29,228 nt of DNA, from IMG/VR virus record IMGVR_UViG_3300010338_000991. One strand, written 5' to 3'. Under the pieces are notes generated by a model, which worked only from the letters and a program-made list of their open reading frames with translations, made no database searches and was not told where the DNA came from. Shown piece after piece: positions 8,549 to 29,228 of this stretch (positions within the stretch are counted from its first letter, which is position 1; each line of letters starts with the position of its first letter). Source of the DNA: a virus. The position numbers and the translations under genes were made by a program.

Positions 8549-8881
8549 TTATTTAGTTAATATTTGTTTTACCATTTGAACCATGTCTATCGGCGTAGAA
8601 AGCGCATCCTTCACGCGATCTACCATCTCATCATATGCGGCGGCTCTTGCGGCGCACTCAGGGCAAAGATCGTCTTCGTCAAGTTCGCCTTCAACAAACT
8701 CTTTCTCGCAATCATCGCAGAAATACGCCTCATAAACATCAGCCGATCCGCATACTGGGCATATGTTTATGTATTCATCTTTCTCCCAGTTTTCCGAGCC
8801 ATTGCCGATGCGTCCAGCACGATACAACACTGTATCCGGATCGTAAAACTGTGATTCGCAGTCACTGCATTTCCATGTCAT
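8549..8881 (-). CDS. Cys-rich zinc-ribbon protein (110 aa)
   Basis: CSDC..CPVC and CDDC..CPEC pairs; GGAGG upstream of the ATG. Confidence 0.45.
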   Translation of the reverse strand: MTWKCSDCESQFYDPDTVLYRAGRIGNGSENWEKDEYINICPVCGSADVYEAYFCDDCEKEFVEGELDEDDLCPECAARAAAYDEMVDRVKDALSTPIDMVQMVKQILTK

Positions 8882-9663
8882 CTTTTCCTCCCTGTTCTGG
8901 CTTTAATGTGGTATGCAATATCGAATTCATTGCAGAAACCAATAACTGTCTCAACTGCGTTATTATAGAAGCTCTGATAATCAGGATAGGTGGATACCAA
9001 CTTGTTATAATGCAACCTGCCAAAGATAATCCTATCAGTGAAGGAAACTTTATCAAGTAATGACACCAAGTCTTGCTTTACTATATTGGGCGTTGGATAT
9101 GGTTCTATACTCACCCACGTTCTACAACCCAGATCATGCAAATTCTTTATGCTTGCCAGGCGGGTAGGGTAATCTGCGGAAAATGGTTCATATTGCTTTC
9201 TGAAGCCTTCATCGAAAGATACCAGTGAAATGCCCCATTCATGCTTTCTATCAAACCTCGATAGTTCCGAAGGCAGTAATCCTTTGGTTAGCGCTGTGCA
9301 CTTGATGCCATAATGATCCAGTAGCTTGATGATCTCGAGGCTCATTTTCGTTACTTCAGGGTATCCACTCATGAATGGGTCTGTGGTAAAGCAAAGATGC
9401 ACGGACTTAATGCTTTTCTGCTTCCTTGGGATTTCTTTCTTCAGCAGATCAAGAGCGTTTTCAACCAGCCTTGGTTTCAGCCAATCGTCGTAGTCTTTTA
9501 TCCTGCCAAATCTGCGAGCCATCATGAAGGCGTAACAGGGATAAGTGCAACCATGAGAACAACCTAACACATGGTTTATTGTGAAGTCTCCGTATTCTAC
9601 ACCTGTTTTATAGAGAAGCTGTTTTCTTAAATTAGTCTTGCTGGTTGTTTCCTTGTCGCTCAT
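8878..9663 (-). CDS. Hypothetical protein with N-terminal Cys cluster (GCSHGCTYPCYA), possibly DUF5131 (phage Gp37/Gp68)-like
   Basis: N-terminus EYGDFTINHVLGCSHGCTYPCYA resembles, from memory, the conserved start of DUF5131 proteins; not a canonical radical-SAM CxxxCxxC. Confidence 0.4.
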   Translation of the reverse strand: MSDKETTSKTNLRKQLLYKTGVEYGDFTINHVLGCSHGCTYPCYAFMMARRFGRIKDYDDWLKPRLVENALDLLKKEIPRKQKSIKSVHLCFTTDPFMSGYPEVTKMSLEIIKLLDHYGIKCTALTKGLLPSELSRFDRKHEWGISLVSFDEGFRKQYEPFSADYPTRLASIKNLHDLGCRTWVSIEPYPTPNIVKQDLVSLLDKVSFTDRIIFGRLHYNKLVSTYPDYQSFYNNAVETVIGFCNEFDIAYHIKARTGRKR

Positions 9664-10005: not shown

Positions 10006-10878
10006 TTACGCAGCATCATATAGTTGGGCAGGTATCTGGTAGTTAATGCCGGCATGCAGGCGACAGTGATTGTAATCGTGGATGGACAATTTGATCAACT
10101 CCCTGGCCAGGCGTTTGCTCTTCAGGACCTTATGGATCAGGTATTCATGCTTCAGGGTATTGAAGAAGCGCTCTATTTTGGCATTGTCATAGCAGTGGTT
10201 TTTCCCCGTGAAGCTTATAGTCAGGCCATGGGACTGGAGTTTTTTCAGATATCGATAGGAACAATACTAGCAGCCATGGTCTGAATGGTGGATGGCTCCT
10301 TTCAGTTCCGGCGTGCTTTTCAAAGCCTTATTAAGGCAATCCAGAGCCCCGTCAGTGCGCAGATTGTTGCTGATGTTGAAGCTGAGTATCTTACGGGAAT
10401 ACATGTCCATCAGAACCGACAGGTAGAGAATGCCTTCGGTGGTGTGGATATAGGTGATGTCGGCGCAGATCGCCTGGTTGGGACGGGTTATAGGTAGTCC
10501 CTTGATCAGGTTTTCAAAGCTGGAGTCATAAATACCGGGGATAGACGTGCGAACCTTCCTGTAACGCCGGGACAGGACCAAGCCGCGATCGCGCAGGATC
10601 CTGTGGAGTTTGTCACGGCCGATCCCAATCCCCAGGTTGGACAACTCATGCCACAGCTTGCGGATGCCGTAAGCAGGATGCGCCGCCCTGATCTTAAGTA
10701 CCTCGTCCACAATCATCTGCTCGTATTCCGCAACCTTCTGGGAGGATGCCAGGGTCTCATAATACCAGGACTTGCTCTTGTTGAGATTCTTGCAGATGGC
10801 GCTCATGGACGCTTTGACAGAAGCCGCTCCAGCGTTCTTCTTTGCTCGGGGGACAGCCTGGAAAGTGAAGTTTTTTTT
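10006..10878 (-). pseudogene. IS3 transposase OrfB (DDE catalytic domain) interrupted by one in-frame TAG at 10267-10269
   Basis: Translation reads ...AIHHSDHGC, then TAG, then a further 86 in-frame codons (YCSYRYLKK...GKNHCYDNAKIERFFNTLK...) up to TAA at 10006. Confidence 0.7.
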
Positions 10879-11218
10879 CAGCCTCGCTGATGTTCTCGTT
10901 GACCACCTCCACATAGCTCTGAAGGCAAATATTGTGCAGGGTGACAGAGGCCAGGGCGGACTCCAACTCCTTGATCCGGTCTTTTTGCTCTTGCAGTATC
11001 GATTTCTCGTCTTTCATCTCAATCCTCACGTATCTTCTTATTACTTGATCCTTTCCGTATTTGCGGAGCCACTTGTAGATCGTGGTTCTGCCATTGATTT
11101 CATAAAGACGGGTTGCCTCTGCTATTGTCAACCTTCCTTTATCAATCTCCTGAACAACTTTCAACTTGAACGCCTCACTGTAGCGAAGCGTTACCTGGGC
11201 GATGGACTGTTTGGCCAT
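10757..11218 (-). CDS. IS3 transposase OrfA (HTH and leucine-zipper part)
   Basis: AAGGAG upstream of ATG 11218; N-terminal HTH-like LTIAEATRLYEINGRTTIYKWLRKY; coiled-coil segment; overlaps OrfB in the -1 frame. Confidence 0.8.
   Translation of the reverse strand: MAKQSIAQVTLRYSEAFKLKVVQEIDKGRLTIAEATRLYEINGRTTIYKWLRKYGKDQVIRRYVRIEMKDEKSILQEQKDRIKELESALASVTLHNICLQSYVEVVNENISEAEKKLHFPGCPPSKEERWSGFCQSVHERHLQESQQEQVLVL
10871..10877 (-). other. Programmed -1 ribosomal frameshift site A_AAA_AAA for OrfAB fusion transposase
   Basis: Minus-strand codons GAA AAA AAA in the OrfA frame; OrfB frame is open in -1 from this point. Confidence 0.5.
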
Positions 11219-12861: not shown

Positions 12862-13637
12862 GTCATCTCCTTCCCGATAAAATCGGTAACATTGTTAATC
12901 TGCTCAATGCGGCTCATTTGTTTTGCCGCGCTTGCGTTCTTATCCTTGCGATATTTGCCGAGTATCTCGTCATGATCTCCGGCAAACACCGGAAAGCCGT
13001 TCTTTCTGCTCAGGAACTCGGCAAGTTTCCATTGATACGAGAAAAAGCAATCAGGATCATTGATAACGGCATGATAGTTTTCTATGCCTTGCTTTATCTC
13101 GGCTAACGTGTATTCTTTGCAGCGTTTTGCGACGGCTTTCTCAATGTCGCTTGTGAGCTTCTTGCACCTAAGGCTCTGCGCCTTAGCGTTCCAATGCTCA
13201 ATGATCTCGCTTGCGTAGCTTGGCTGCTTAGGCGATTGTTTGGGTGCTGGTGTTTCTGGCTCTGATTGAGCTTGTGCTTTAGCTTTGCCGCCGATAGCGC
13301 CTGCCACGCTCCTCACTTCCGAAATCCTCTTGCGCTTTTCCAGTGTTTCCTGAACGATATCGGCACTGTATTTGTTGTCACACAAGATAAACGCCTCAAT
13401 TGACACGCAATAAGAAAAGAAGCGCTCAAGCTCATCGCAGTCAACGCCATAATCATCTGCATAGATCTCGATATCATCATGCTCTATCCAGCCACCGGAG
13501 CGCATCATTATCTCAATGCTAATATAATACATAGCATATCCCTTAAGCTTGCCAAACCTCGCCTTAATTCTCCGCATCTGTGGCTCATTGTGCGAATCAA
13601 TAGAGTGTTTGAACCATTTTTCGGGATTATGATTCAT
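12858..13637 (-). CDS. Replication initiation / replisome organiser with DUF4373 (Lin1244-like) N-terminal domain
   Basis: N-terminus WFKHSIDSHNEPQMRRIKARFGKLKGYAMYYISIEIMMRSGG resembles the DUF4373 signature of phage DnaD-like organisers; Lys/Ala-rich linker. Confidence 0.6.
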   Translation of the reverse strand: MNHNPEKWFKHSIDSHNEPQMRRIKARFGKLKGYAMYYISIEIMMRSGGWIEHDDIEIYADDYGVDCDELERFFSYCVSIEAFILCDNKYSADIVQETLEKRKRISEVRSVAGAIGGKAKAQAQSEPETPAPKQSPKQPSYASEIIEHWNAKAQSLRCKKLTSDIEKAVAKRCKEYTLAEIKQGIENYHAVINDPDCFFSYQWKLAEFLSRKNGFPVFAGDHDEILGKYRKDKNASAAKQMSRIEQINNVTDFIGKEMT

Positions 13638-13816
13638 TATTTCCCCCGATGTTCTACCATGAACTTATCAAGGTCTTGAATGTCAAACATCATCTCCTTT
13701 CCGCCGGGACGGGAATACTGCACCTTGCCCTGCTTTGCGTATCTCCTGAGCATGTATTCAGTAATGCCCAAATACTTGGCTGCTTGTGACGTTTTAAGAT
13801 ATCTCTGGGCAATCAT
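13637..13816 (-). CDS. Small HTH DNA-binding protein (excisionase/MerR-like), first gene of the minus-strand unit (ORF track extends to 13987)
   Basis: GGGAGA upstream of ATG 13816; HTH segment LKTSQAAKYLGITEYMLRRYAKQGKV. Confidence 0.5.
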   Translation of the reverse strand: MIAQRYLKTSQAAKYLGITEYMLRRYAKQGKVQYSRPGGKEMMFDIQDLDKFMVEHRGK

Positions 13817-13970
13817 GTTTTTCTCCCGTTGATGTAATTGCTTTTGTGTTTGTGTGTCTGGCTCATAAGAACCTCCTTTTAATTTCTGAATCCACCAAAA
13901 TACAGCCGCAAATCCTGTAAAGCATTTTCTTTGATTTGTGTTGACTTGTATTAATGTGAATGCGTAAATC

Positions 13971-14096
13971 AAGCAAATGCTAAGCAAATGCTAAGCAAAT
14001 GCTAAGCAAAATCAAGCAAACCGAAGCAGATAAGATAAGATAAGATAAGATAAGAGTAGATGAGATTAGATGAGATTAGAGGAGATTAGAATAGAC
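13971..14096. repeat. Iteron-like tandem repeat array: AAGCA-containing units at 11/11/11/10/10-bp spacing, GATAA x5, and four 10-bp units (TAGATGAGAT x2, TAGAGGAGAT, TAGAATAGAC)
   Basis: Read directly from sequence; located in the divergent intergenic region upstream of the replication module. Confidence 0.7.
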
Positions 14097-14142
14097 TATC
14101 ACTTTGCTAACGCAAAGATGATATATACACCATGAAAACCGT

Positions 14143-14160
14143 TTTCGTGACGTCACGAAA
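14143..14160. promoter_or_regulatory. Perfect 18-bp palindrome TTTCGTGACGTCACGAAA (candidate operator)
   Basis: Exact two-fold symmetry; overlaps a second palindrome GAAAACCGTTTTC (14134-14146); lies about 45 bp upstream of the TTGACA box. Confidence 0.45.
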
Positions 14161-14203
14161 TTGGTTAAGGCGATGCTGCCGGATCACCAAAATCACATTT
14201 TTC

Positions 14204-14231
14204 TTGACAAATAATTAATGCTGATTATATT
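14204..14231 (+). promoter_or_regulatory. Sigma70-like promoter candidate (TTGACA, 16 bp, TATATT) for the plus-strand unit
   Basis: Hexamers read directly; a TATAAT also occurs at 14244-14249. Confidence 0.4.
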
Positions 14232-14262
14232 GTAATCATGAGCTATAATTTTGATCACGATT

Positions 14263-14306
14263 TTGACATTGACATTGACATCGACTCGATTAACATCGAC
14301 ATCGAT
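14263..14306. repeat. Hexamer array TTGACA x3 in tandem followed by TCGAC/ATCGAC/ATCGAT repeats
   Basis: Sequence ttgacattgacattgacatcgactcgattaacatcgacatcgat, ending 47 bp upstream of the ParB-like gene start. Confidence 0.4.
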
Positions 14307-14352
14307 GAAAAAGACGAGCGCAAACACAATGTGTCTCGCATGGAGGCGATGA

Positions 14353-14820
14353 GTGAAGACAAATAAGCTTAAATTCAATCCCAATAATCCTCGCAAATGT
14401 AGTAAAGACAAGCTTGAAAAACTTATGCGCTCAATCGAATCATTCCCTGAAATGATGAAGTTGCGCCCAATGGTTTACGATCCCGAAACCATGTATGTTT
14501 TAGGCGGGAATCAGCGCCTCGCAGCTATTAGAAAGCTCGGCATGAAAGACATCCCGGATGAGTGGACGATCGCCGCCACAGATCTCACCCCAGAACAGCA
14601 AAAGGAATTTGTTCTGCGAGATAATGTGCAGTTCGGCGATTGGGACTTTGAGATGCTGTCTGCTGAGTTTGGCGAATTTGATCTTGAAGAAATGGGCATG
14701 GATATGCCAGAGATAGAGGCAGAAGAGCCATATGTCCCAAGTGAAACTAAAGAAATTGACACAGATATAGCATTTGATCACAAGTGCCCAAAATGTGGAT
14801 TTGAGTTTAATGAATCTTAG
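14353..14820 (+). CDS. ParB-like nuclease (ParB/Srx) domain protein with C-terminal zinc ribbon
   Basis: GGAGG 5 nt upstream of a GTG start; N-terminal KLKFNPNNPRK...MYVLGGNQRLAAIRKLG resembles the ParBc domain; C-terminal CPKCG. Confidence 0.6.
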   Translation: MKTNKLKFNPNNPRKCSKDKLEKLMRSIESFPEMMKLRPMVYDPETMYVLGGNQRLAAIRKLGMKDIPDEWTIAATDLTPEQQKEFVLRDNVQFGDWDFEMLSAEFGEFDLEEMGMDMPEIEAEEPYVPSETKEIDTDIAFDHKCPKCGFEFNES

Positions 14821-15829
14821 ATATAACATTAAAGACATTGCAGATATAGAAAAGACGCATAAAGCATTTTCTACTTTTGCGTGTGGTGGGGGATCGTCAA
14901 TAGGCTACAAACTGGCAGGGATTGAAGTTATTGGAGCAAATGATATTGATCCTGAAATGAAGTGGCACTATACAAAAAACCTTAACCCATCGCTATATTA
15001 TTTATGCCCAATATCTGACATGATATCAATGGAATTGCCAAACGAGCTTTTTGCCCTTGACATATTAGATGGATCACCTCCATGCTCAACTTTTAGCACA
15101 TCTGGGAACAGAGAAAAGGATTGGGGCAAAAACAAATACTTTAGGGAAGGTCAAGCAAAGCAAGTTCTTTCTGACTTGTTTTTTGACTACATAGACCTTG
15201 TCAAAAGGCTACAGCCAAAAGTATCTATATCAGAAAATGTAACTGGAATTATCAAAGGAAATGCTAAATATTACGCCAAAACAATAGTGCAAAAACTTGA
15301 TGAAGCAGGATATGTTACTCAAGTTTTTCAGATAAACGCAGCAAATTGCGGTGTCCCTCAAATGAGAGAACGCGTGTTTTTTATAAGTAGGCGCAAAGAT
15401 ATAGACAAAAAACCACTTGTATTATCACCAAAAGAAAAAATACTTACTGTATGGGATGCTATACACGACATACAGGATTTGACAGATGATGAGATTAGGG
15501 ACACAGCCCCAAATAACACTGACTTGAAATATTGGAACAAAACCAAGCCAGGATGCAGCTATTCAAGCGTTCACGAAAAAGGCAGCTTTTTTTCTTATTA
15601 TAGGCTAAACAAAGACAAACCAAGCAACACTATCCAAGCAAACCATCAATGTTATACTCACCCATCAGAATGCAGAAACCTAACTTTTAGAGAAGTCAAA
15701 AGACTGTCGTCATTTCCAGATGATTACGAAGCAAAAACAGATAACATCGGGAAGTATATGTGCGGAATGAGTGTGCCTCCATTTATGATGTATCAAGTAG
15801 CAAAAGCAGTAAAAGAGCAGTGGCTATAA
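14810..15829 (+). CDS. DNA (cytosine-5)-methyltransferase (ORF track starts at a TTG at 14774)
   Basis: Motif I FACGGGSSIGYKLAG, catalytic PC motif GSPPCSTFS, ENV motif ISENVTG, QxRxR motif VPQMRERVFF. Confidence 0.85.
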   Translation: MNLRYNIKDIADIEKTHKAFSTFACGGGSSIGYKLAGIEVIGANDIDPEMKWHYTKNLNPSLYYLCPISDMISMELPNELFALDILDGSPPCSTFSTSGNREKDWGKNKYFREGQAKQVLSDLFFDYIDLVKRLQPKVSISENVTGIIKGNAKYYAKTIVQKLDEAGYVTQVFQINAANCGVPQMRERVFFISRRKDIDKKPLVLSPKEKILTVWDAIHDIQDLTDDEIRDTAPNNTDLKYWNKTKPGCSYSSVHEKGSFFSYYRLNKDKPSNTIQANHQCYTHPSECRNLTFREVKRLSSFPDDYEAKTDNIGKYMCGMSVPPFMMYQVAKAVKEQWL

Positions 15830-15865
15830 TGTGTGATGAGACAATATCCGGACAAGGAGTATCGA

Positions 15866-16813
15866 ATGATTAGAACCGCTGAATGTGTAACGCCGAAGCA
15901 TCCAGACAAGCTGTGCGACCGCATAGCTGATGCCATATTGACGGAGGCAATAAAGCAAGATCCAAACGCCAGAACGGCAATAGAAGTTTGTGCCGGTCAT
16001 GGCATTGTGACCGTTCTGGGCGAAATGACAACCACAGCCTTTGTTGATGTTGCTGACATAGCCCGCAGGATTACAGATGGTGAGTGCGGCGTGCAAGTCA
16101 ATATTGTGCGACAGTCACCCGACATAGCGATGGGAGTTGATGCCGGAGGCGCCGGAGATCAAGGCATTATGATCGGATATGCCTGCAACGAAAATGATAA
16201 TTTTATTCCTACGGAATTAAACCTCGCCAGAGATTTGTGCCAATTCATTTATATGCGACACGAAGTTGACGGCAAAACTCAAATCACAATGGACGGCAAT
16301 AAAATATCAACTATTGTCGCAAGCTTTCACAACACAAAGAGCGGAGATCTGAGATCCCTTGTGCACCAGTGGCTTGATGGCAGAAAATGCGAATCGATAA
16401 TGTGTAATCCTGCCGGCGATTGGAAAACCGGCGGGCTTAACGCTGATTCTGGCGTAACGGGAAGGAAACTTGCCATAGACAACTACGGAACCAGAACACC
16501 CATTGGCGGCGGCGCATTTAGCGGAAAAGACCCCACCAAAGTGGATCGCTCTGCCGCGTATATGGCAAGAAAAATTGCTGTCGATATCTTGCGCCAGAAA
16601 AATGCAAAAGAAGTTATCGTTTCGCTTGCTTATGCAATCGGCGTTCCTGATCCGGTAATGACGGAGTGTATTGCCGATGGAAATCATGTTGACATTTCAC
16701 ACTACAGCTTGACACCAAAAGCAATTATCGATGCGCTTGGGCTTCGTGATATTGATTATGAAAAAACAGCAGCGTGGGGGCACTTCGGCATCGGCATGCC
16801 GTGGGACAAATAA
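15866..16813 (+). CDS. metK: S-adenosylmethionine synthetase (MetK), compact form of about 315 aa
   Basis: AAGGAG 6 nt upstream of ATG 15866; motifs KHPDKLCDRIADAILTEA, GAGDQGIMIGYA, DGKTQIT, GGGAFSGKDPTKVDRSAAYMARKIA and C-terminal TAAWGHFG, aligning with bacterial MetK. Confidence 0.85.
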   Translation: MIRTAECVTPKHPDKLCDRIADAILTEAIKQDPNARTAIEVCAGHGIVTVLGEMTTTAFVDVADIARRITDGECGVQVNIVRQSPDIAMGVDAGGAGDQGIMIGYACNENDNFIPTELNLARDLCQFIYMRHEVDGKTQITMDGNKISTIVASFHNTKSGDLRSLVHQWLDGRKCESIMCNPAGDWKTGGLNADSGVTGRKLAIDNYGTRTPIGGGAFSGKDPTKVDRSAAYMARKIAVDILRQKNAKEVIVSLAYAIGVPDPVMTECIADGNHVDISHYSLTPKAIIDALGLRDIDYEKTAAWGHFGIGMPWDK

Positions 16814-16814
16814 A

Positions 16815-17213
16815 ATGGCAACGACCAAAAAAGCTTCCAATAAAGCGACTCCAGACTTCACACTTAAAAAAAGCCAAATGCTGGAGGCGCTTGAAAAGTC
16901 TCTTGGCGTGGTGACCACCGCCGCTCAGAAGGTAGGCATCAGCAGGCGGCAACATTACAACTGGCTCAAATCCGATCCTGCCTATTGCGAGGCCGTTGCC
17001 GAGATTAATAACATATCGCTTGACCTTGCTGAGTCCAAGCTATTCACGGCTGTTAATAATGGTGAGTTATCTGCTATCATTTTCTTTCTGAAATGCAAAG
17101 GCAAGAAGCGCGGATATATCGAGAGGCCGGCAGACGAGCCGGCGCCGCAAGACCACAACAAACCCGAAATATGCATGCGCCCAGCGCGGCTAGCGGAATC
17201 CGATGAAGATTAA
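16815..17213 (+). CDS. terS: Terminase small subunit candidate (132 aa)
   Basis: HTH-like segment LGVVTTAAQKVGISRRQHYNWL; directly upstream of and overlapping the large terminase. Confidence 0.5.
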   Translation: MATTKKASNKATPDFTLKKSQMLEALEKSLGVVTTAAQKVGISRRQHYNWLKSDPAYCEAVAEINNISLDLAESKLFTAVNNGELSAIIFFLKCKGKKRGYIERPADEPAPQDHNKPEICMRPARLAESDED

Positions 17214-18453
17214 CTTTTGTGAAGATCATTATTTGCCGCATCAATGGCAATTCCTTAATGATTGGAGCAGAACGCTTGGATTGATCGGCGGGCTCGGCTC
17301 CGGCAAAACTGCGGCGTTTCTTGCTAAGACATTCATCTGCCACATCAGCCGACCGGGCGCAACCGGAAAGAGCAATGTCGGCATTGGCTACCCGTCGTAT
17401 GGCGATGCGAAGGAATTGTTCTTCTACCCGTATTGCGATATGTTAGAGATGGCTGGAATCAAATACGTAGAAAACAAATCAGAGCTTACGATTAAAACTG
17501 AGCAGGGTCAAGTCAAGATCGTGTCTGCGTTCCATCCGGAGCGGATCAAGGGTTTTTCGTTCACCGATTTCGGTTTTGACGAGATCGACACGCTTGATTT
17601 GGCGAAAGGCAAAACCGCTATCCGCCGGGCAAGAGAACGCTTGCGTGGACGCAGAGACGCTCAATTGTTTCTGGTCTCGTCACCGGAAGGTTTTTCCACC
17701 TGTTACGAGGTGCTGAAGAAGAATCCGAATCCGGGCACATCCGTCATTCATGCCGATACGCGATCGAACACATATCTTCCCACCGAATACATTAATGATT
17801 TGCTCAATACTTATGATGAACAGATGGCTATGGCATATATTAGTGGTCAATTTGTTAACCTGAACAATATGCAAGCGCACTATGCCTTCCGCCGGGATGT
17901 TCACGTGCATAGCATTCCGATGCCTGAGCCGCACGATGTGATACTGGTGGGGATAGATTTTAATGTTAATCCAATGACGGCGGCTTTGTGCTATTCGCGC
18001 GAAATTGACGGGCGCACACATTACTTTTTCTTTGCAGAATACTATCTTTTGAACGCAAACACATATCTGTTGTCAGACTTGTTAGCGGAAGACTACCCGA
18101 ATCGCGTATTGCGCTGCTATCCTGATCCGACTGGAATTGCGCGCAAGACATCATCTGATGCAAGCGATATAGAAATACTGAAGCGCAAGGGCTTCGATGT
18201 CCGGTATCGACACGGTATAACGCAACGCAGATCGCTCAATATCGCCAATGGCGCATTTGCGCATAATGCTATCCACATCGATCCTTGTTGTGAAAACTTG
18301 ATTAACGATCTTGAGCAGGTGGTCACCGATGCGGCCGGCGCTATAATGAAACCAAACAACACAATGCTGACACATATTTCTGACGCAATGCGCAATATAA
18401 TCGTTGTTGACGCATTGGTAAAGCAAGAACAAACACCGTGGGATGTAGCATGA
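17203..18453 (+). CDS. terL: Terminase large subunit
   Basis: Walker A GGLGSGKT, Walker B-like FGFDEID, C-terminal nuclease-like region (VGIDFNVNP); 416 aa. Confidence 0.8.
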   Translation: MKINFCEDHYLPHQWQFLNDWSRTLGLIGGLGSGKTAAFLAKTFICHISRPGATGKSNVGIGYPSYGDAKELFFYPYCDMLEMAGIKYVENKSELTIKTEQGQVKIVSAFHPERIKGFSFTDFGFDEIDTLDLAKGKTAIRRARERLRGRRDAQLFLVSSPEGFSTCYEVLKKNPNPGTSVIHADTRSNTYLPTEYINDLLNTYDEQMAMAYISGQFVNLNNMQAHYAFRRDVHVHSIPMPEPHDVILVGIDFNVNPMTAALCYSREIDGRTHYFFFAEYYLLNANTYLLSDLLAEDYPNRVLRCYPDPTGIARKTSSDASDIEILKRKGFDVRYRHGITQRRSLNIANGAFAHNAIHIDPCCENLINDLEQVVTDAAGAIMKPNNTMLTHISDAMRNIIVVDALVKQEQTPWDVA

Positions 18454-19838
18454 ACTTAAATTTAATACGCAGAGCAAAAGCGGCGAGCATAATGCAAGAC
18501 GATTTACAGCGACGCGCAATTACGCGCATGGCGATCGACTTTTACAACTATAACCAAGAACCCTATACTATGGCGAAAATCAAAAGCCGATACCCGGACA
18601 CATATACCGATCTGCAACACTATATTGTGGCGACAGATTTATCTCGCGCACTAACCCGCCAGCTTGCCAAGATATTTCAGCAAGACCCGCTTATCACATT
18701 AGATGGAGCGTCAGATGATTTAGTTAAACATTTTACTGATTTGCTTGATGGAGCGAATTTATTCGGTTCTTTGCGCGTTATTGATCGTTACGCAGAGACT
18801 TGCAATCAGATCGGCATTGCGCCAATTTTTAATCCGCGAACAGGCAAAATAAAGCTGGACTTCATTACGCCTGACCGCTGCATAGTTTGGCAAGATGATA
18901 TTGACCCAACCGAGGCCGTAGCTGTAGCTTACACAATCCGCAACAAGTTCAATACTCCGATTGCAGATCGCTCTGACGTGTATGCACTCTGGACGGATGA
19001 CGCATATCGCGTAGTGACTCTAAAAACGGATGGAACGATTGACACAGACATTGAGCCGCCTCAGCCTAATCCATACGGTCGCATCCCAATTGCTTGGTTT
19101 CGCACTGATATGGCAATTGACTCTTTTTGGCTTGATCGTCAATTTCCTATGGTAGAGGCCAATCTGCGCGCCAATATTCAGCTGACCAATCTTGATGTTG
19201 CGCTGGACTATCAATCGTTCAGCACAATGTGGACGTCTGGCATGCCTGAAGGTGCGAAGCTTAATGTAGGCGTTCAGCGATACATCAACATCCCTCGCGA
19301 TCCTGTAACCGGCAATGTGAGCGGCTCTATTGGCTACGCTACGCCATCACCACAGCTTCAGACGGTCTGGGATATTATTAACGATAACATAGCGCTTGCG
19401 GCGGCTCTTATGGGCATTAGCGCGGAAGCAATCAAGCAAGGAAGCTCATTCAGTTCCGGTTATCAATTGCGCCTATCAAAATCCGATGTGATATCGTATA
19501 ATGTGGAAAAGCGATCTATATATCGAGAGCCATTGCGCGATCTCGTGCAGCTCATCATGGACTGCAAACGGCTTAATAGCAATATCAACATGCCGGAAGC
19601 TGCCGATATAAAGATTGACTTTGCCGATATCACGATTGAACAAAATCCGTTAGAAGAAGAGCAGGTTCGCTCGCTGAAGATTTCCAATGGCACAATGAGC
19701 CGCGTAGATGCCATCATGCTTGATAATCAAGACTTGAGCCGTGAAGATGCGGAAAAGGAAATTGAGCGAATAGACGCCGATAACAATCGCTTCCGCATTG
19801 GCGCGGCAAACATTGATCAGGGCTTGTTTGATGAATAA
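18450..19838 (+). CDS. Portal protein candidate (about 462 aa)
   Basis: Size and position immediately after the large terminase; ATG overlaps the terminase stop (ATGA). Confidence 0.55.
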   Translation: MNLNLIRRAKAASIMQDDLQRRAITRMAIDFYNYNQEPYTMAKIKSRYPDTYTDLQHYIVATDLSRALTRQLAKIFQQDPLITLDGASDDLVKHFTDLLDGANLFGSLRVIDRYAETCNQIGIAPIFNPRTGKIKLDFITPDRCIVWQDDIDPTEAVAVAYTIRNKFNTPIADRSDVYALWTDDAYRVVTLKTDGTIDTDIEPPQPNPYGRIPIAWFRTDMAIDSFWLDRQFPMVEANLRANIQLTNLDVALDYQSFSTMWTSGMPEGAKLNVGVQRYINIPRDPVTGNVSGSIGYATPSPQLQTVWDIINDNIALAAALMGISAEAIKQGSSFSSGYQLRLSKSDVISYNVEKRSIYREPLRDLVQLIMDCKRLNSNINMPEAADIKIDFADITIEQNPLEEEQVRSLKISNGTMSRVDAIMLDNQDLSREDAEKEIERIDADNNRFRIGAANIDQGLFDE

Positions 19839-28811: not shown

Positions 28812-29228
28812 ACTTGTTTACATTGATCACAATGATTACGAGCACACTTTTTATAATGTGCTTAATTTTAGCATTGATCCTATACAAGCTAATACAGACA
28901 ACATTTTTACTTCATCCGGCAGAAAGCTAAGCATAACAATCCCCTATGATGCTTCCGCCATAAACGCATTCCACAATAACGATCAGCCGAATGAAATATA
29001 TCCGGAATATTTAGCAGGGCACTTTAGATTCTTTAAGGATAACGAAGTAATTTTTATTGGCATGGCAAAAGTTACATTTATCGACATTGATGAGCAGAAT
29101 GCAGAGATACAATTTAGGATTTCAGACGCTCTTGATCTTTGGATCGATTTAGCCAAATCAACAAACTTTGATGTAAAGGCTGCGGAACAAAAAGTGATAC
29201 ATTTGCGACCATCAACCGGAGATTATAC
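28801..29228 (+). CDS. Tail protein, 5' part (ATG at 28801 overlapping the tape-measure stop; runs off the window end and continues at 1-1184; full product about 494 aa)
   Basis: Open frame from ATG 28801 with no stop to the window end; the last 127 nt equal bases 1-127 and the frame matches ORF 93-1184; position immediately downstream of the tape measure gene. Confidence 0.5.
   Translation, partial: MSYKLVYIDHNDYEHTFYNVLNFSIDPIQANTDNIFTSSGRKLSITIPYDASAINAFHNNDQPNEIYPEYLAGHFRFFKDNEVIFIGMAKVTFIDIDEQNAEIQFRISDALDLWIDLAKSTNFDVKAAEQKVIHLRPSTGDY
29102..29228. repeat. Terminal overlap copy 2: identical to 1-127
   Basis: Same as above; unique genome length is therefore about 29101 bp. Confidence 0.85.

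Follow-up and report, generated by a model that had tools for sequence, protein, structure and literature searches.

The 29,228-nucleotide stretch of viral DNA recorded in IMG/VR as IMGVR_UViG_3300010338_000991 (here called the window, at its full length) carries at the head of its rightward operon a module of three genes, which encode a predicted ParB-CTPase-fold protein, a homologue of the cytosine-C5 methyltransferases and a short form of the S-adenosylmethionine (SAM) synthetase MetK. Together, these genes probably constitute a post-replicative DNA-modification unit that is expressed along with the packaging genes. In related phages, the conserved ParB N-domain with its leader and the 5' end of metK flank an exchangeable cassette slot, and the tail of the ParB-fold protein changes with the enzyme encoded downstream. 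A phage methyltransferase beside a phage SAM synthetase is already known as a common pairing; what goes beyond it here is an enzyme clade outside the canonical pattern, a ParB tail that covaries with the enzyme, and a cassette slot bounded by the ParB N-domain and metK.

An earlier reading made from the sequence alone (the sequence-only reading) had described three adjacent plus-strand genes at the head of the rightward unit, and the corresponding open reading frames (ORFs) are indeed found there, adjoining, tightly packed and opening the packaging operon. All three evolve under purifying selection, with ratios of nonsynonymous to synonymous substitution rates (dN/dS) of 0.06-0.25 against close relatives. 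Their positions are as follows (aa, amino acids):

14353..14820, plus strand: ORF1, ParB-CTPase-fold protein, 155 aa, a fold match (PHROG ParB-like families, E 5e-25 to 2e-20)
14810..15829, plus strand: ORF2, C5 cytosine methyltransferase homologue of the 'SPPCS / GMSVPP' clade, 339 aa (PF00145, E 3e-47)
15866..16813, plus strand: ORF3, short-form SAM synthetase MetK, 315 aa (three MetK Pfam domains; phrog_1569, E 1e-92)

Identity of the three proteins

ORF1 starts at a GTG with GGAGG 6 nucleotides (nt) upstream and comprises an N-domain (aa 1 to ~124; nt 14353-14724) followed by an acidic linker and a TKEID...H-x-CPKCGFEF tail (nt 14725-14820), the tail sequence being ETKEIDTDIAFDHKCPKCGFEFNES. 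Pfam ParB_N reached 17.6 bits on this protein, below the cut-off of 26.3; several of its close homologues carry a precomputed PF02195 match. Because a sequence search of the PDB returned no match, fold comparison was needed. The AlphaFold (AF2) model has a predicted local distance difference test score (pLDDT) of ~88 over residues 1-92, with residues 93-155 forming a low-confidence linker and tail, and the top 24 Foldseek matches in the PDB are all ParB, Noc, PadC or sulfiredoxin (best E 7e-4, probability 1.0; probability 0.96-1.0 for the top 21). Furthermore, Box II-like GGNQRLAA and Box III-like RDNVQ segments are nearly invariant across 33 homologues, as is R55, the arginine of the Box II (P-motif) GxxRxxA. 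The N-domain has a dN/dS of 0.06-0.25 and is 81-94% identical to the copies that head other cassettes in relatives. The features of a canonical partition ParB of a ParABS system (an HTH DNA-binding domain, a C-terminal dimerisation domain and a partner ParA) are not seen, the protein being 155 aa long and the whole-genome Pfam scan containing no ParA-type family. On the model and profile evidence, ORF1 is a predicted ParB-CTPase-fold N-domain joined to a partner-specific tail. The sequence-only reading had named it a ParB-like nuclease domain: the ParB fold is borne out by PHROG and Foldseek, the latter through a structure prediction that the same reading had proposed, while no nuclease signature was found in ORF1, 'nuclease' being merely a former Pfam name. 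Profile searches, likewise proposed there, placed the C-5 methylase and the N, central and C domains of MetK above their cut-offs and left ParB_N below its own.

ORF2, listed from a TTG at 14774, more likely starts at the ATG at 14810, overlapping the ORF1 stop by 11 nt. It is a C5 methyltransferase at the family level, as had been claimed (PF00145, 162 bits against a cut-off of 22; TIGR00675, 130.1 against 100.65), and not a canonical one. The motifs cited for it earlier (FACGGG, PPCSTFS, ENV, QMRERV) are all present, as are those cited for ORF3 (GAGDQG, GGGAFSGKDPTKVDRSAAY). Aligned to M.HaeIII and SpCmoX, ORF2 displays FACGGG, SPPCS, ENV, QMRER(V) and GMSVPP, and thereby the FxGxG of motif I, the Pro-Cys of motif IV with C92 as catalytic cysteine, the ENV of motif VI and the QxRxR of motif VIII. 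The canonical pocket residues are replaced, with Ser for the Gln of PCQ and Met for the Asn of the motif X GN, at the positions of Gln82 and Asn304 of M.HhaI. In M.HhaI these two residues line the transferable group, Q82A lowering methylation 16-fold and N304A opening the pocket to larger groups. The gene is an orphan with no restriction partner and has a dN/dS of 0.13.

The best PDB match of ORF2 is 8YF3 (E 1e-42, 32.5% identity), compared with E-values of 1e-25 for M.HaeIII and 9e-10 for M.HhaI. It depicts SpCmoX from Synechococcus phage S-B43, which carboxymethylates cytosine at C5 and has carboxy-SAM (Cx-SAM), the product of a phage CmoA, as its sole accepted cofactor (Yang et al., 2025, PMC12783734). 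CmoX enzymes are defined by an SPPC motif (S95-C98 of SpCmoX) and by Arg350, which takes the place of M.HhaI Asn304 and binds the Cx-SAM carboxylate (PMC12783734). ORF2 has the SPPC motif, within DGSPPCSTFS, and aligns a Met at Arg350 (CGMSVPP versus VGRMVPP). SPPCS and GMSVPP occur together in 119 of its 120 closest homologues among at least 8,000 candidate database proteins, in all 11 IMG/VR relatives that cover the motifs, and in Bacillus phage BMBtp14 and Flavobacterium phage FpV9. No CmoA or CmoY was found in the complete window or in the loci of this clade by tblastn with SpCmoA and SpCmoY queries (E 1e-3), although the host may encode a CmoA, and the whole-genome scan contained no Pfam family of either type. 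Filing ORF2 as CmoX was rejected on the change of Arg350 to Met and the lack of CmoA and CmoY. Judged by its motifs, it has the C5-methyltransferase fold and falls in a separate 'GM' clade, large and so far uncharacterised, that is sister to CmoX.

The CmoA-CmoX-CmoY system of S-B43 resembles the module in the C5-methyltransferase fold with SPPC, as the best solved-structure match, in the cofactor-supplying phage enzyme encoded beside the transferase and in the ParBc proteins that frequently adjoin CmoX homologues, whose function is called unknown there (PMC12783734). In contrast, the window enzyme has Met at CmoX Arg350, its genome lacks the Cx-SAM synthase CmoA and the ligase CmoY, and its cofactor gene is metK, the product of which is predicted to make SAM itself. 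ORF2 most likely transfers a methyl group from SAM. Because the pocket Ser and Met are noncanonical and the nearest characterised relative is a carboxymethyltransferase, 5-methylcytosine (5mC) as its product is an assumption, and the replacement of the Gln82 and Asn304 equivalents, which weighs against the proposed methylation unit, means that methyl transfer is not assured. Nevertheless, we consider it quite unlikely that ORF2 transfers some other group in the manner of CmoX from a SAM-derived cofactor whose synthesis MetK would feed. Such a product is suggested by the strict preference of the closest solved relative for Cx-SAM, by the SPPC motif common to both enzymes, and by the alteration of both group-size-gating positions in a pair kept in nearly all homologues; however, there is no Arg to bind the carboxylate of Cx-SAM, neither CmoA nor CmoY has a homologue in the complete genome or at any GM-clade locus examined, no other cofactor-tailoring enzyme was seen beside the gene, a Met side chain does not conflict with a plain methyl donor, and the methionine-pocket residues of MetK are unchanged.

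ORF3 begins only 36 nt beyond the methyltransferase stop. It was listed from a GTG at 15833 and more likely starts at the ATG at 15866, which has AAGGAG 6 nt upstream and corresponds to the Met at which cellular homologues begin. The claim of a 315-aa phage SAM synthetase is borne out at the family level: the MetK N, M and C domains score 74.1, 46.5 and 126.8 bits against gathering thresholds of 33.1, 29 and 25 (the N and M profiles being partly covered), and Escherichia coli MetK structures match with E 8e-51. In the phmmer alignment to 1FUG and 7LL3, ORF3 keeps E. coli H14, D16, K17, E42, E55, Q98 and the gating loop, D118, D163, K165, D238, R244, K245, K265, K269 and D271. Substitutions are F230 to W and H257 to I, and the equivalents of the methionine-pocket residues I102 and I302 are unchanged. 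Against this stands the score of 246.3 bits with the NCBIfam equivalog TIGR01034, below its cut-off of 309.4, which is missed because ~60-69 residues of loops, helix and tail are deleted; in all, ORF3 is 69 residues shorter than E. coli MetK, through loops, a shortened helix and a missing C-terminal tail.

Such a short form might be catalytically dead, or an inhibitor or decoy of the host MetK. Its length, its sub-threshold equivalog score and the change of His257 to Ile would suit that reading, as would the precedent of a MetK-inactivating phage protein, the T3 SAMase described in PMC8406200. We regard it as highly improbable, since all catalytic and metal- or ligand-binding residues are kept, the losses are confined to loops, the shortened helix and the tail, the same short form is chromosomal in hundreds of Saccharibacteria and Cloacimonadota genomes, and dN/dS against close relatives is 0.08-0.09. 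Relatives of ORF3 are encoded at 555 genome loci, the best of those that are not phage copies being chromosomal, in Ca. Cloacimonadales and Ca. Saccharibacteria; the Ca. Cloacimonadales (Cloacimonadota) proteins are 58-61% identical to ORF3 and lie in housekeeping neighbourhoods. A short MetK of 315-320 aa appears to be the standard chromosomal form in Ca. Saccharibacteria, Nanosyncoccus and Ca. Cloacimonadota (loci L086-L162). Two ideas were consequently rejected, that the short MetK is a phage-specific invention, given its chromosomal occurrence in Cloacimonadota and Saccharibacteria, and that it is inactive, given its residue conservation and dN/dS. Residue conservation, purifying selection and the chromosomal short form all suggest that ORF3 synthesises SAM from methionine and ATP. 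No SAM riboswitch or other RNA element for metK was found in the window with Rfam at gathering thresholds.

Probable ParB partners and an exchangeable cassette slot

An ORF of 165-202 aa lies directly 5' of the transferase gene, and overlaps it, at all five sampled database loci, at 5 of 11 IMG/VR loci and in Bacillus phage BMBtp14, and terminase genes usually adjoin these pairs of ParB and GM-clade transferase. Seven of ten partner proteins, from unrelated phages, end in (T/Q)(K/Q)E(I/L)(D/N)xD..(H/C)xCPKC(G/K/Q)F(E/H/Q)F, and their N-domains are weakly similar to that of ORF1. Within the lineage of the window, the class of the ParB tail switches with the downstream enzyme while the N-domain is unchanged. 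The pair thus displays both the conserved adjacency and the cognate covariation by which a ParB-partnered modification pair such as 5mYOX-ParB is recognised. Covariation of tail and enzyme across distant phages therefore argues for a direct, tail-mediated partnership, in which the ParB-fold protein would physically contact the enzyme. Bacillus phage vB_BtS_BMBtp14 and many metagenomic phages share the overlapping two-gene unit, the tail ..DHTCPKCGFHFN, the SPPCS/GMSVPP enzyme and a nearby gene for the small terminase subunit (terS); they differ in having no MetK, and the pair is annotated just as 'chromosome segregation protein' and 'DNA-cytosine methyltransferase'.

ParB partners of DNA-modifying enzymes have precedents. 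A phage ParB activates a thymine dioxygenase on double-stranded DNA in a cognate-specific manner (O'Toole et al., 2026, PMC13229309), and fusions of ParB to methyltransferases are overrepresented among phages and prophages (Kaljevic et al., 2025, PMC12704722). As in these systems, an orphan protein of the predicted ParB-CTPase fold without a helix-turn-helix (HTH) stands here beside a post-replicative DNA-modifying enzyme, the pairing is cognate-specific, and a close relative (L003 in our numbering of loci and contigs) fuses the same N-domain to an N6/N4 methyltransferase. Unlike the dioxygenase system, the window has a C5 transferase as partner, whose activation is a proposal only, and its ParB lacks the C-terminal dimerisation domain and has a Cys/His tail of ~30 aa instead.

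The phage lineage was defined with the large terminase subunit TerL as anchor. MetK is 97-99% and TerL 93-98% identical in 13 IMG/VR contigs and 3 contigs from metagenome-assembled genomes (MAGs), with the exception of L015 (TerL 59%), and the window transferase is absent from every one of these contigs. In blastn comparisons, the shared blocks are window 14340-14724, which holds the leader and ParB residues 1-124, and 15812/15828-16833, which holds metK. The intervening 14725-15811, with the ParB tail and the transferase, is missing from 13 relatives that are otherwise 92-96% identical and is found, at 95% identity, in L174. The breakpoints fall at 14724/14725 and 15812-15828. Moreover, the ParB N-domain DNA of the window is 94% identical to that of L008, which has a different cassette, and only 84% identical to that of L174, which has the same tail and transferase; a breakpoint therefore lies inside the ParB gene. 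The space between the two blocks is filled in relatives by one or several of these contents:

ParB N-domain fused to an N6/N4 methyltransferase
ParB-175 with a 190-aa Trm1-like protein and a 257-aa radical SAM enzyme
ParB-169 with an ABC-ATPase/GNAT protein
ParB-170 with a 93-aa protein, a GNAT protein and an IbrA-like phosphoadenosine phosphosulfate (PAPS) reductase/DUF3440 protein (L175, 3279-6195; L174)
ParB-252 with a TET-associated glycosyltransferase (PF20691, E 4e-34; L193, 314-1931; L176)
ParB-139 alone
a 23-codon ParB stub only

Several genomes have two ParB-headed cassettes in tandem; in these, the metK ribosome-binding site (RBS) with the first eight metK codons, joined to the ParB leader, precedes the second ParB. 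Since this metK stub is joined to the leader ahead of second ParBs, the 5' end of metK and the ParB leader are identified as recombination joints. Additionally, L181 (27-635) and protein P0100 are in-frame fusions of the ParB N-domain to the C-terminal third of MetK at a shared Gly-Asp-Trp (GDW), and in L181 the cassette and two thirds of metK have been deleted together.

Two of these contents deserve separate description. The commonest cassette of the relatives (L008, 1564-2906; L004, L006, L007, L009, L013) pairs the Trm1-like protein and the radical SAM enzyme behind its own ParB variant; the 190-aa Trm1-like protein has the SAM-binding motifs VLDAYAGKG and DLDAYGCP and no Pfam or NCBIfam match, the 257-aa enzyme has a CDHGCxYCY motif, and the cassette may be an uncharacterised DNA modification system. 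No TET/JBP gene was in view near the glycosyltransferase cassette of L193 and L176.

MetK, SAM-using cassettes and their viral context

Intact metK accompanies 8 of 9 architectures that have a SAM-using cassette and none of 6 that do not (Fisher p = 0.0014), counted over the architectures of the TerL-defined lineage in which the region is complete; these do not count as phylogenetically independent cases, and physical linkage ties the genes together. The two groups that conform are:

Intact metK with a SAM-using cassette: window, L003, L004, L006, L007, L008, L009, L013
metK absent or truncated and no SAM-using enzyme: L175, L193, L177, L182, L190/191/194, L181

Several observations weigh against a dedicated link between MetK and DNA modification. 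L187 keeps the ParB::N6/N4 methyltransferase fusion without metK. The association is confounded by linkage and shared ancestry, block deletions in L177 and L182 having taken cassettes and metK together; it is suggestive only, since related contigs are being counted and metK adjoins the cassettes, where a single deletion takes out both. The slot also houses cassettes that use no SAM (the IbrA-like PAPS reductase, the TET-associated glycosyltransferase and the ABC-ATPase/GNAT protein), MetK lies near none of 16 other GM-clade methyltransferase loci, and most distant viral MetK genes sit among genes of nucleotide metabolism or chaperones and not methyltransferases. At 39 non-redundant loci of this kind, the commonest neighbours within three ORFs either side of MetK are thymidylate synthase (11), cytidylyltransferase-like proteins (11) and peptide deformylase (10), with chaperonins also present, while DNA methyltransferase domains were counted 9 times (at no more than 9 loci) and ParB 3 times. 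In Faecalibacterium phage FP_Brigit, MetK stands amid replication genes.

These neighbourhoods lend substance to the alternative that MetK has no specific coupling to the transferase and is a general auxiliary metabolic gene in an accessory hot spot by terS, raising SAM for host or phage metabolism such as RNA and protein methylation, polyamines, autoinducer 2 (AI-2) or lysogenic conversion. The report that deletion of a prophage metK in Streptococcus agalactiae altered aggregation and biofilm (PMC8223999) agrees with it, as do the non-SAM cassettes and L187. We think this explanation unlikely, while giving it appreciable weight, because within the lineage intact metK follows the SAM-using cassettes, metK is translationally packed between the transferase and terS, both radical SAM-anchored loci that possess MetK have an N6/N4 methyltransferase next to it, and the layout of MetK, methyltransferase and terS is repeated in Streptococcus prophages.

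Coupling to DNA modification remains the favoured role for MetK, and the other candidate client in the genome fares less well. The only other SAM-using enzyme predicted there belongs to the leftward early operon:

8878..9663, minus strand: radical SAM protein, 261 aa (PF04055, 31.4 bits against a cut-off of 29.5; weak DUF5131 match)

With the cassette radical SAM enzyme of relatives this protein shares 28% identity (E 6e-20). Its viral homologues number 51, at 54-66% identity, none highly identical in the close relatives of the window, and MetK lies within 9 kb of two of the 51, each time with an N6/N4 methyltransferase beside it; because just these two are near MetK, the radical SAM protein is unlikely to be its main client. 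Its cluster motif, CSHGCTYPC, is unusual.

As for novelty, the sequence-only reading, which knew of no characterised example of this arrangement, overstated its case. Homologues of MetK are encoded in 161 deposited phage records, mostly annotated as SAM synthetase, PHROGs already holds a phage MetK family (phrog_1569), and about 100 deposited Streptococcus prophages have MetK beside methyltransferases, 5' of terS. In these prophages (Javan phages, phi-SsuNJ5, 12/111phiA), as in the window, a shortened MetK (43% identical) shares an operon with DNA methyltransferases ahead of terS and terL, the genes for the small and large terminase subunits. Their MetK, however, belongs to another clade and measures 345 aa, it lies 5' of the methyltransferases whereas that of the window lies 3' of the transferase, no ParB-like partner is annotated, and the adenine and cytosine methyltransferases come from other families. 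In virome surveys, dcm and metK are the two most frequent viral auxiliary genes (22.8% and 8.6% of the auxiliary genes of gut viral operational taxonomic units), and they occur in 67% and 58.9% of Ca. Heliusvirales genomes; in digesters of pig and chicken manure, metK ranks first in abundance among the auxiliary genes. Such surveys likewise find both genes in one phage genome, at census level, and are silent on adjacency, ParB partner, enzyme clade and cassette structure.

A second, divergent MetK-like family (~255-265 aa, ~30% identical, annotated 'hypothetical') occurs in Heliusvirales 'NatCom' phages and others (PV036412, PV036423, PV036426, PV036416, PV036431, PP197246, MK448839), and in Terrisporobacter phage TPDSL_ph1 the gene for a member abuts a DNA methyltransferase gene.

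Phage T3 offers a contrasting use of the same pool. According to PMC8406200, its SAM lyase (SAMase) inactivates host MetK, so that both phages act on SAM in a context of DNA methylation and restriction and do so in opposite directions: T3, in that account, destroys SAM and inactivates MetK to stay unmethylated, whereas the window phage is a predicted SAM maker. Regarding the self-sufficient modification or counter-defence unit proposed in the sequence-only reading, phage-supplied SAM fits the intact MetK residues, the coupled operon and the co-occurrence with SAM-using cassettes, and the remainder is what we infer. No evidence was found for its further suggestion that the module buffers host SAM depletion, considering also how seldom methyltransferase domains appear at the distant viral MetK loci. 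Literature searches retrieved no experimental study of viral MetK supporting (or limiting) phage DNA methylation, and because no publication in the library consulted measures whether viral MetK limits it, a functional test of the pairing is still worthwhile.

A bolder proposal, which we rate as speculative and rather improbable as a whole, is that the SPPCS/GMSVPP clade adds a non-methyl group at cytosine C5, or methylates only when loaded by a ParB zinc-knuckle tail, and that the ParB N-domain and metK form the fixed frame of a plug-and-play slot in which chemically different cassettes (C5 transferase, N6/N4 methyltransferase, Trm1-like protein with radical SAM enzyme, IbrA-like protein, glycosyltransferase) are exchanged by homologous recombination, MetK being kept whenever the cassette consumes SAM.

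Packaging-gene setting, proposed mechanism and implications

The exact 127-nt terminal overlap of the window, whose first 127 nt are repeated at 29102-29228, indicates that a complete phage genome of 29,101 unique base pairs was assembled and circularly closed. Its early genes, in a leftward block, specify an HTH/excisionase-like protein, a replication initiator, a DnaC-like loader, RecT, RusA, an IS3-like transposase pair and the radical SAM protein; its rightward block starts with the module genes and continues with terS, terL and the portal, capsid, tail and lysis genes. Additional features at the head of the rightward operon are:

14204..14231, plus strand: promoter-like site TTGACA-16 nt-TATATT, 11 of 12 consensus positions, the best in 13600-18600 (consensus match only)
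14238..14366, plus strand: 42-aa remnant ORF, an in-frame deletion derivative of a 211-213-aa gene of relatives
16815..17213, plus strand: small terminase subunit gene terS (PHROG terminase small subunit, E 6e-6; Pfam HTH_8)
17203..18453, plus strand: large terminase subunit gene terL (phrog_2, E 4e-25; Terminase_6N)

The promoter-like site lies in the divergent intergenic region, 7 nt 5' of the first rightward ORF. From there the genes are packed as an operon, with starts and stops that overlap or abut and with strong Shine-Dalgarno sites: terS starts 2 nt beyond the MetK stop, as inspection of the junction sequence confirmed, and terL overlaps terS. No terminator-like site was found on the plus strand from ORF1 to terL, the only plus-strand match of the scan lying within terL.

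This proximity invites the alternative that the ParB-transferase pair serves packaging or gene regulation and not anti-restriction, for example by marking pac-proximal or other sites so that terminase or regulators recognise replicated phage DNA, with MetK in support. The pair stands immediately 5' of terS and terL in the window, L164, L166, L169, L254, L255 and BMBtp14, and ParB alone directly precedes terS in L190, L191 and L194; ParBs that direct a modification apparatus to DNA during packaging are a suggestion quoted in PMC8256090, and O'Toole et al. argue for targeted, epigenetic-like roles (PMC13229309). Moreover, certain palindromes are avoided genome-wide, with observed/expected (O/E) ratios of 0.09 for CTAG, 0.24 for GTAC and 0.25 for GGCC, and GGNCC occurs just 10 times, while GCGC (1.02) and CCGG (1.27) are not avoided. 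Because GGCC, GTAC and CTAG are so strongly avoided, site avoidance is also part of the anti-restriction strategy, a point that detracts from modification as the means of protection. Yet the cassette is dispensable in the close relatives L177 and L182, which have the same terS and terL, and chemically unrelated modification enzymes replace it elsewhere, a pattern more in keeping with diversifying selection by host defences than with a fixed role in packaging; a packaging or regulatory function accordingly seems to us quite unlikely. Prediction of the target site of the transferase from the palindrome statistics was rejected, as avoidance says nothing of the site of the enzyme.

In the modification unit that we favour, the ParB-fold protein would load onto DNA, or activate, the cytosine-C5 transferase encoded directly downstream, with its small Cys/His tail docking to that enzyme. 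The transferase would then modify phage DNA at cytosine C5, most probably with a methyl group from SAM, before or during packaging, so that progeny genomes would reach their next host with protection against restriction in place. The short-form MetK would make SAM on site from methionine and ATP, so that a genome-wide burst of modification need not be limited by the host pool. Finally, alternative modification cassettes would be swapped between two homology arms, the leader and N-domain of ParB to the left and the 5' end of metK to the right. No restriction partner, integrase, ParA or second methyltransferase was found among the 25 Pfam families matched by 43 ORFs or in the PHROG scans.

Several side observations concern the surroundings of the module. 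The middle of terS (16834-17141) is mosaic, most relatives being merely 38-43% identical there by blastn, and the sequence either side (metK upstream, the 3' end of terS and terL downstream) is 92-96% identical; two terS alleles are in circulation in the lineage. The 42-aa remnant ORF reads MSYNFDHDFDIDIDID...VSR joined to MEAMSEDK, its last codons containing the ParB leader and RBS. L008 (452-1087) and L004 (848-1489) have the same N- and C-termini with ~170 extra residues between them, the deletion joint lying at window 14340 (blastn). The 211-213-aa protein of relatives has an HxK...GSGN (PLD/HKD-like) motif and, in Pfam, a weak Thy1 match and nothing more, and a protein resembling it adjoins the terminase genes in L170.

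The divergent intergenic region at 13966-14166 is repeat-rich, with three copies of AAGCAAATGCTAAGCAAA at 11-nt spacing, a run of 10-nt repeats (GATAA/AGATGAGATT) and a 15+15-nt palindrome (AACCGTTTTCGTGAC/GTCACGAAATTGGTT), and could be an origin or operator region. On the minus strand at 10267-11218, a pair of overlapping ORFs with transposase matches (PHROG transposase; Pfam rve, HTH_21, HTH_28, HTH_Tnp_1) resembles an IS3-family element that has inserted into the early region. Clues to the host are mixed: identical contigs were binned as uncultured bacterium or Methanolobus, one ParB homologue comes from a Bacteroidales MAG, and among cellular MetK proteins the closest belongs to Cloacimonadales.

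Phage DNA modification shapes host range, restriction resistance and the ease with which phages are used in therapy or sequenced. Three leads from the module are of more use than the pairing itself. A very large conserved clade annotated 'Dcm' has both pocket residues changed, and its product should therefore be checked and not taken as 5mC. A Cys/His ParB tail that tracks the enzyme clade over unrelated phages provides a handle on how orphan ParBs assist DNA-modifying enzymes. Lastly, one species-level lineage with at least seven alternative slot contents represents a natural experiment on how phages reshuffle the chemistry of DNA modification.

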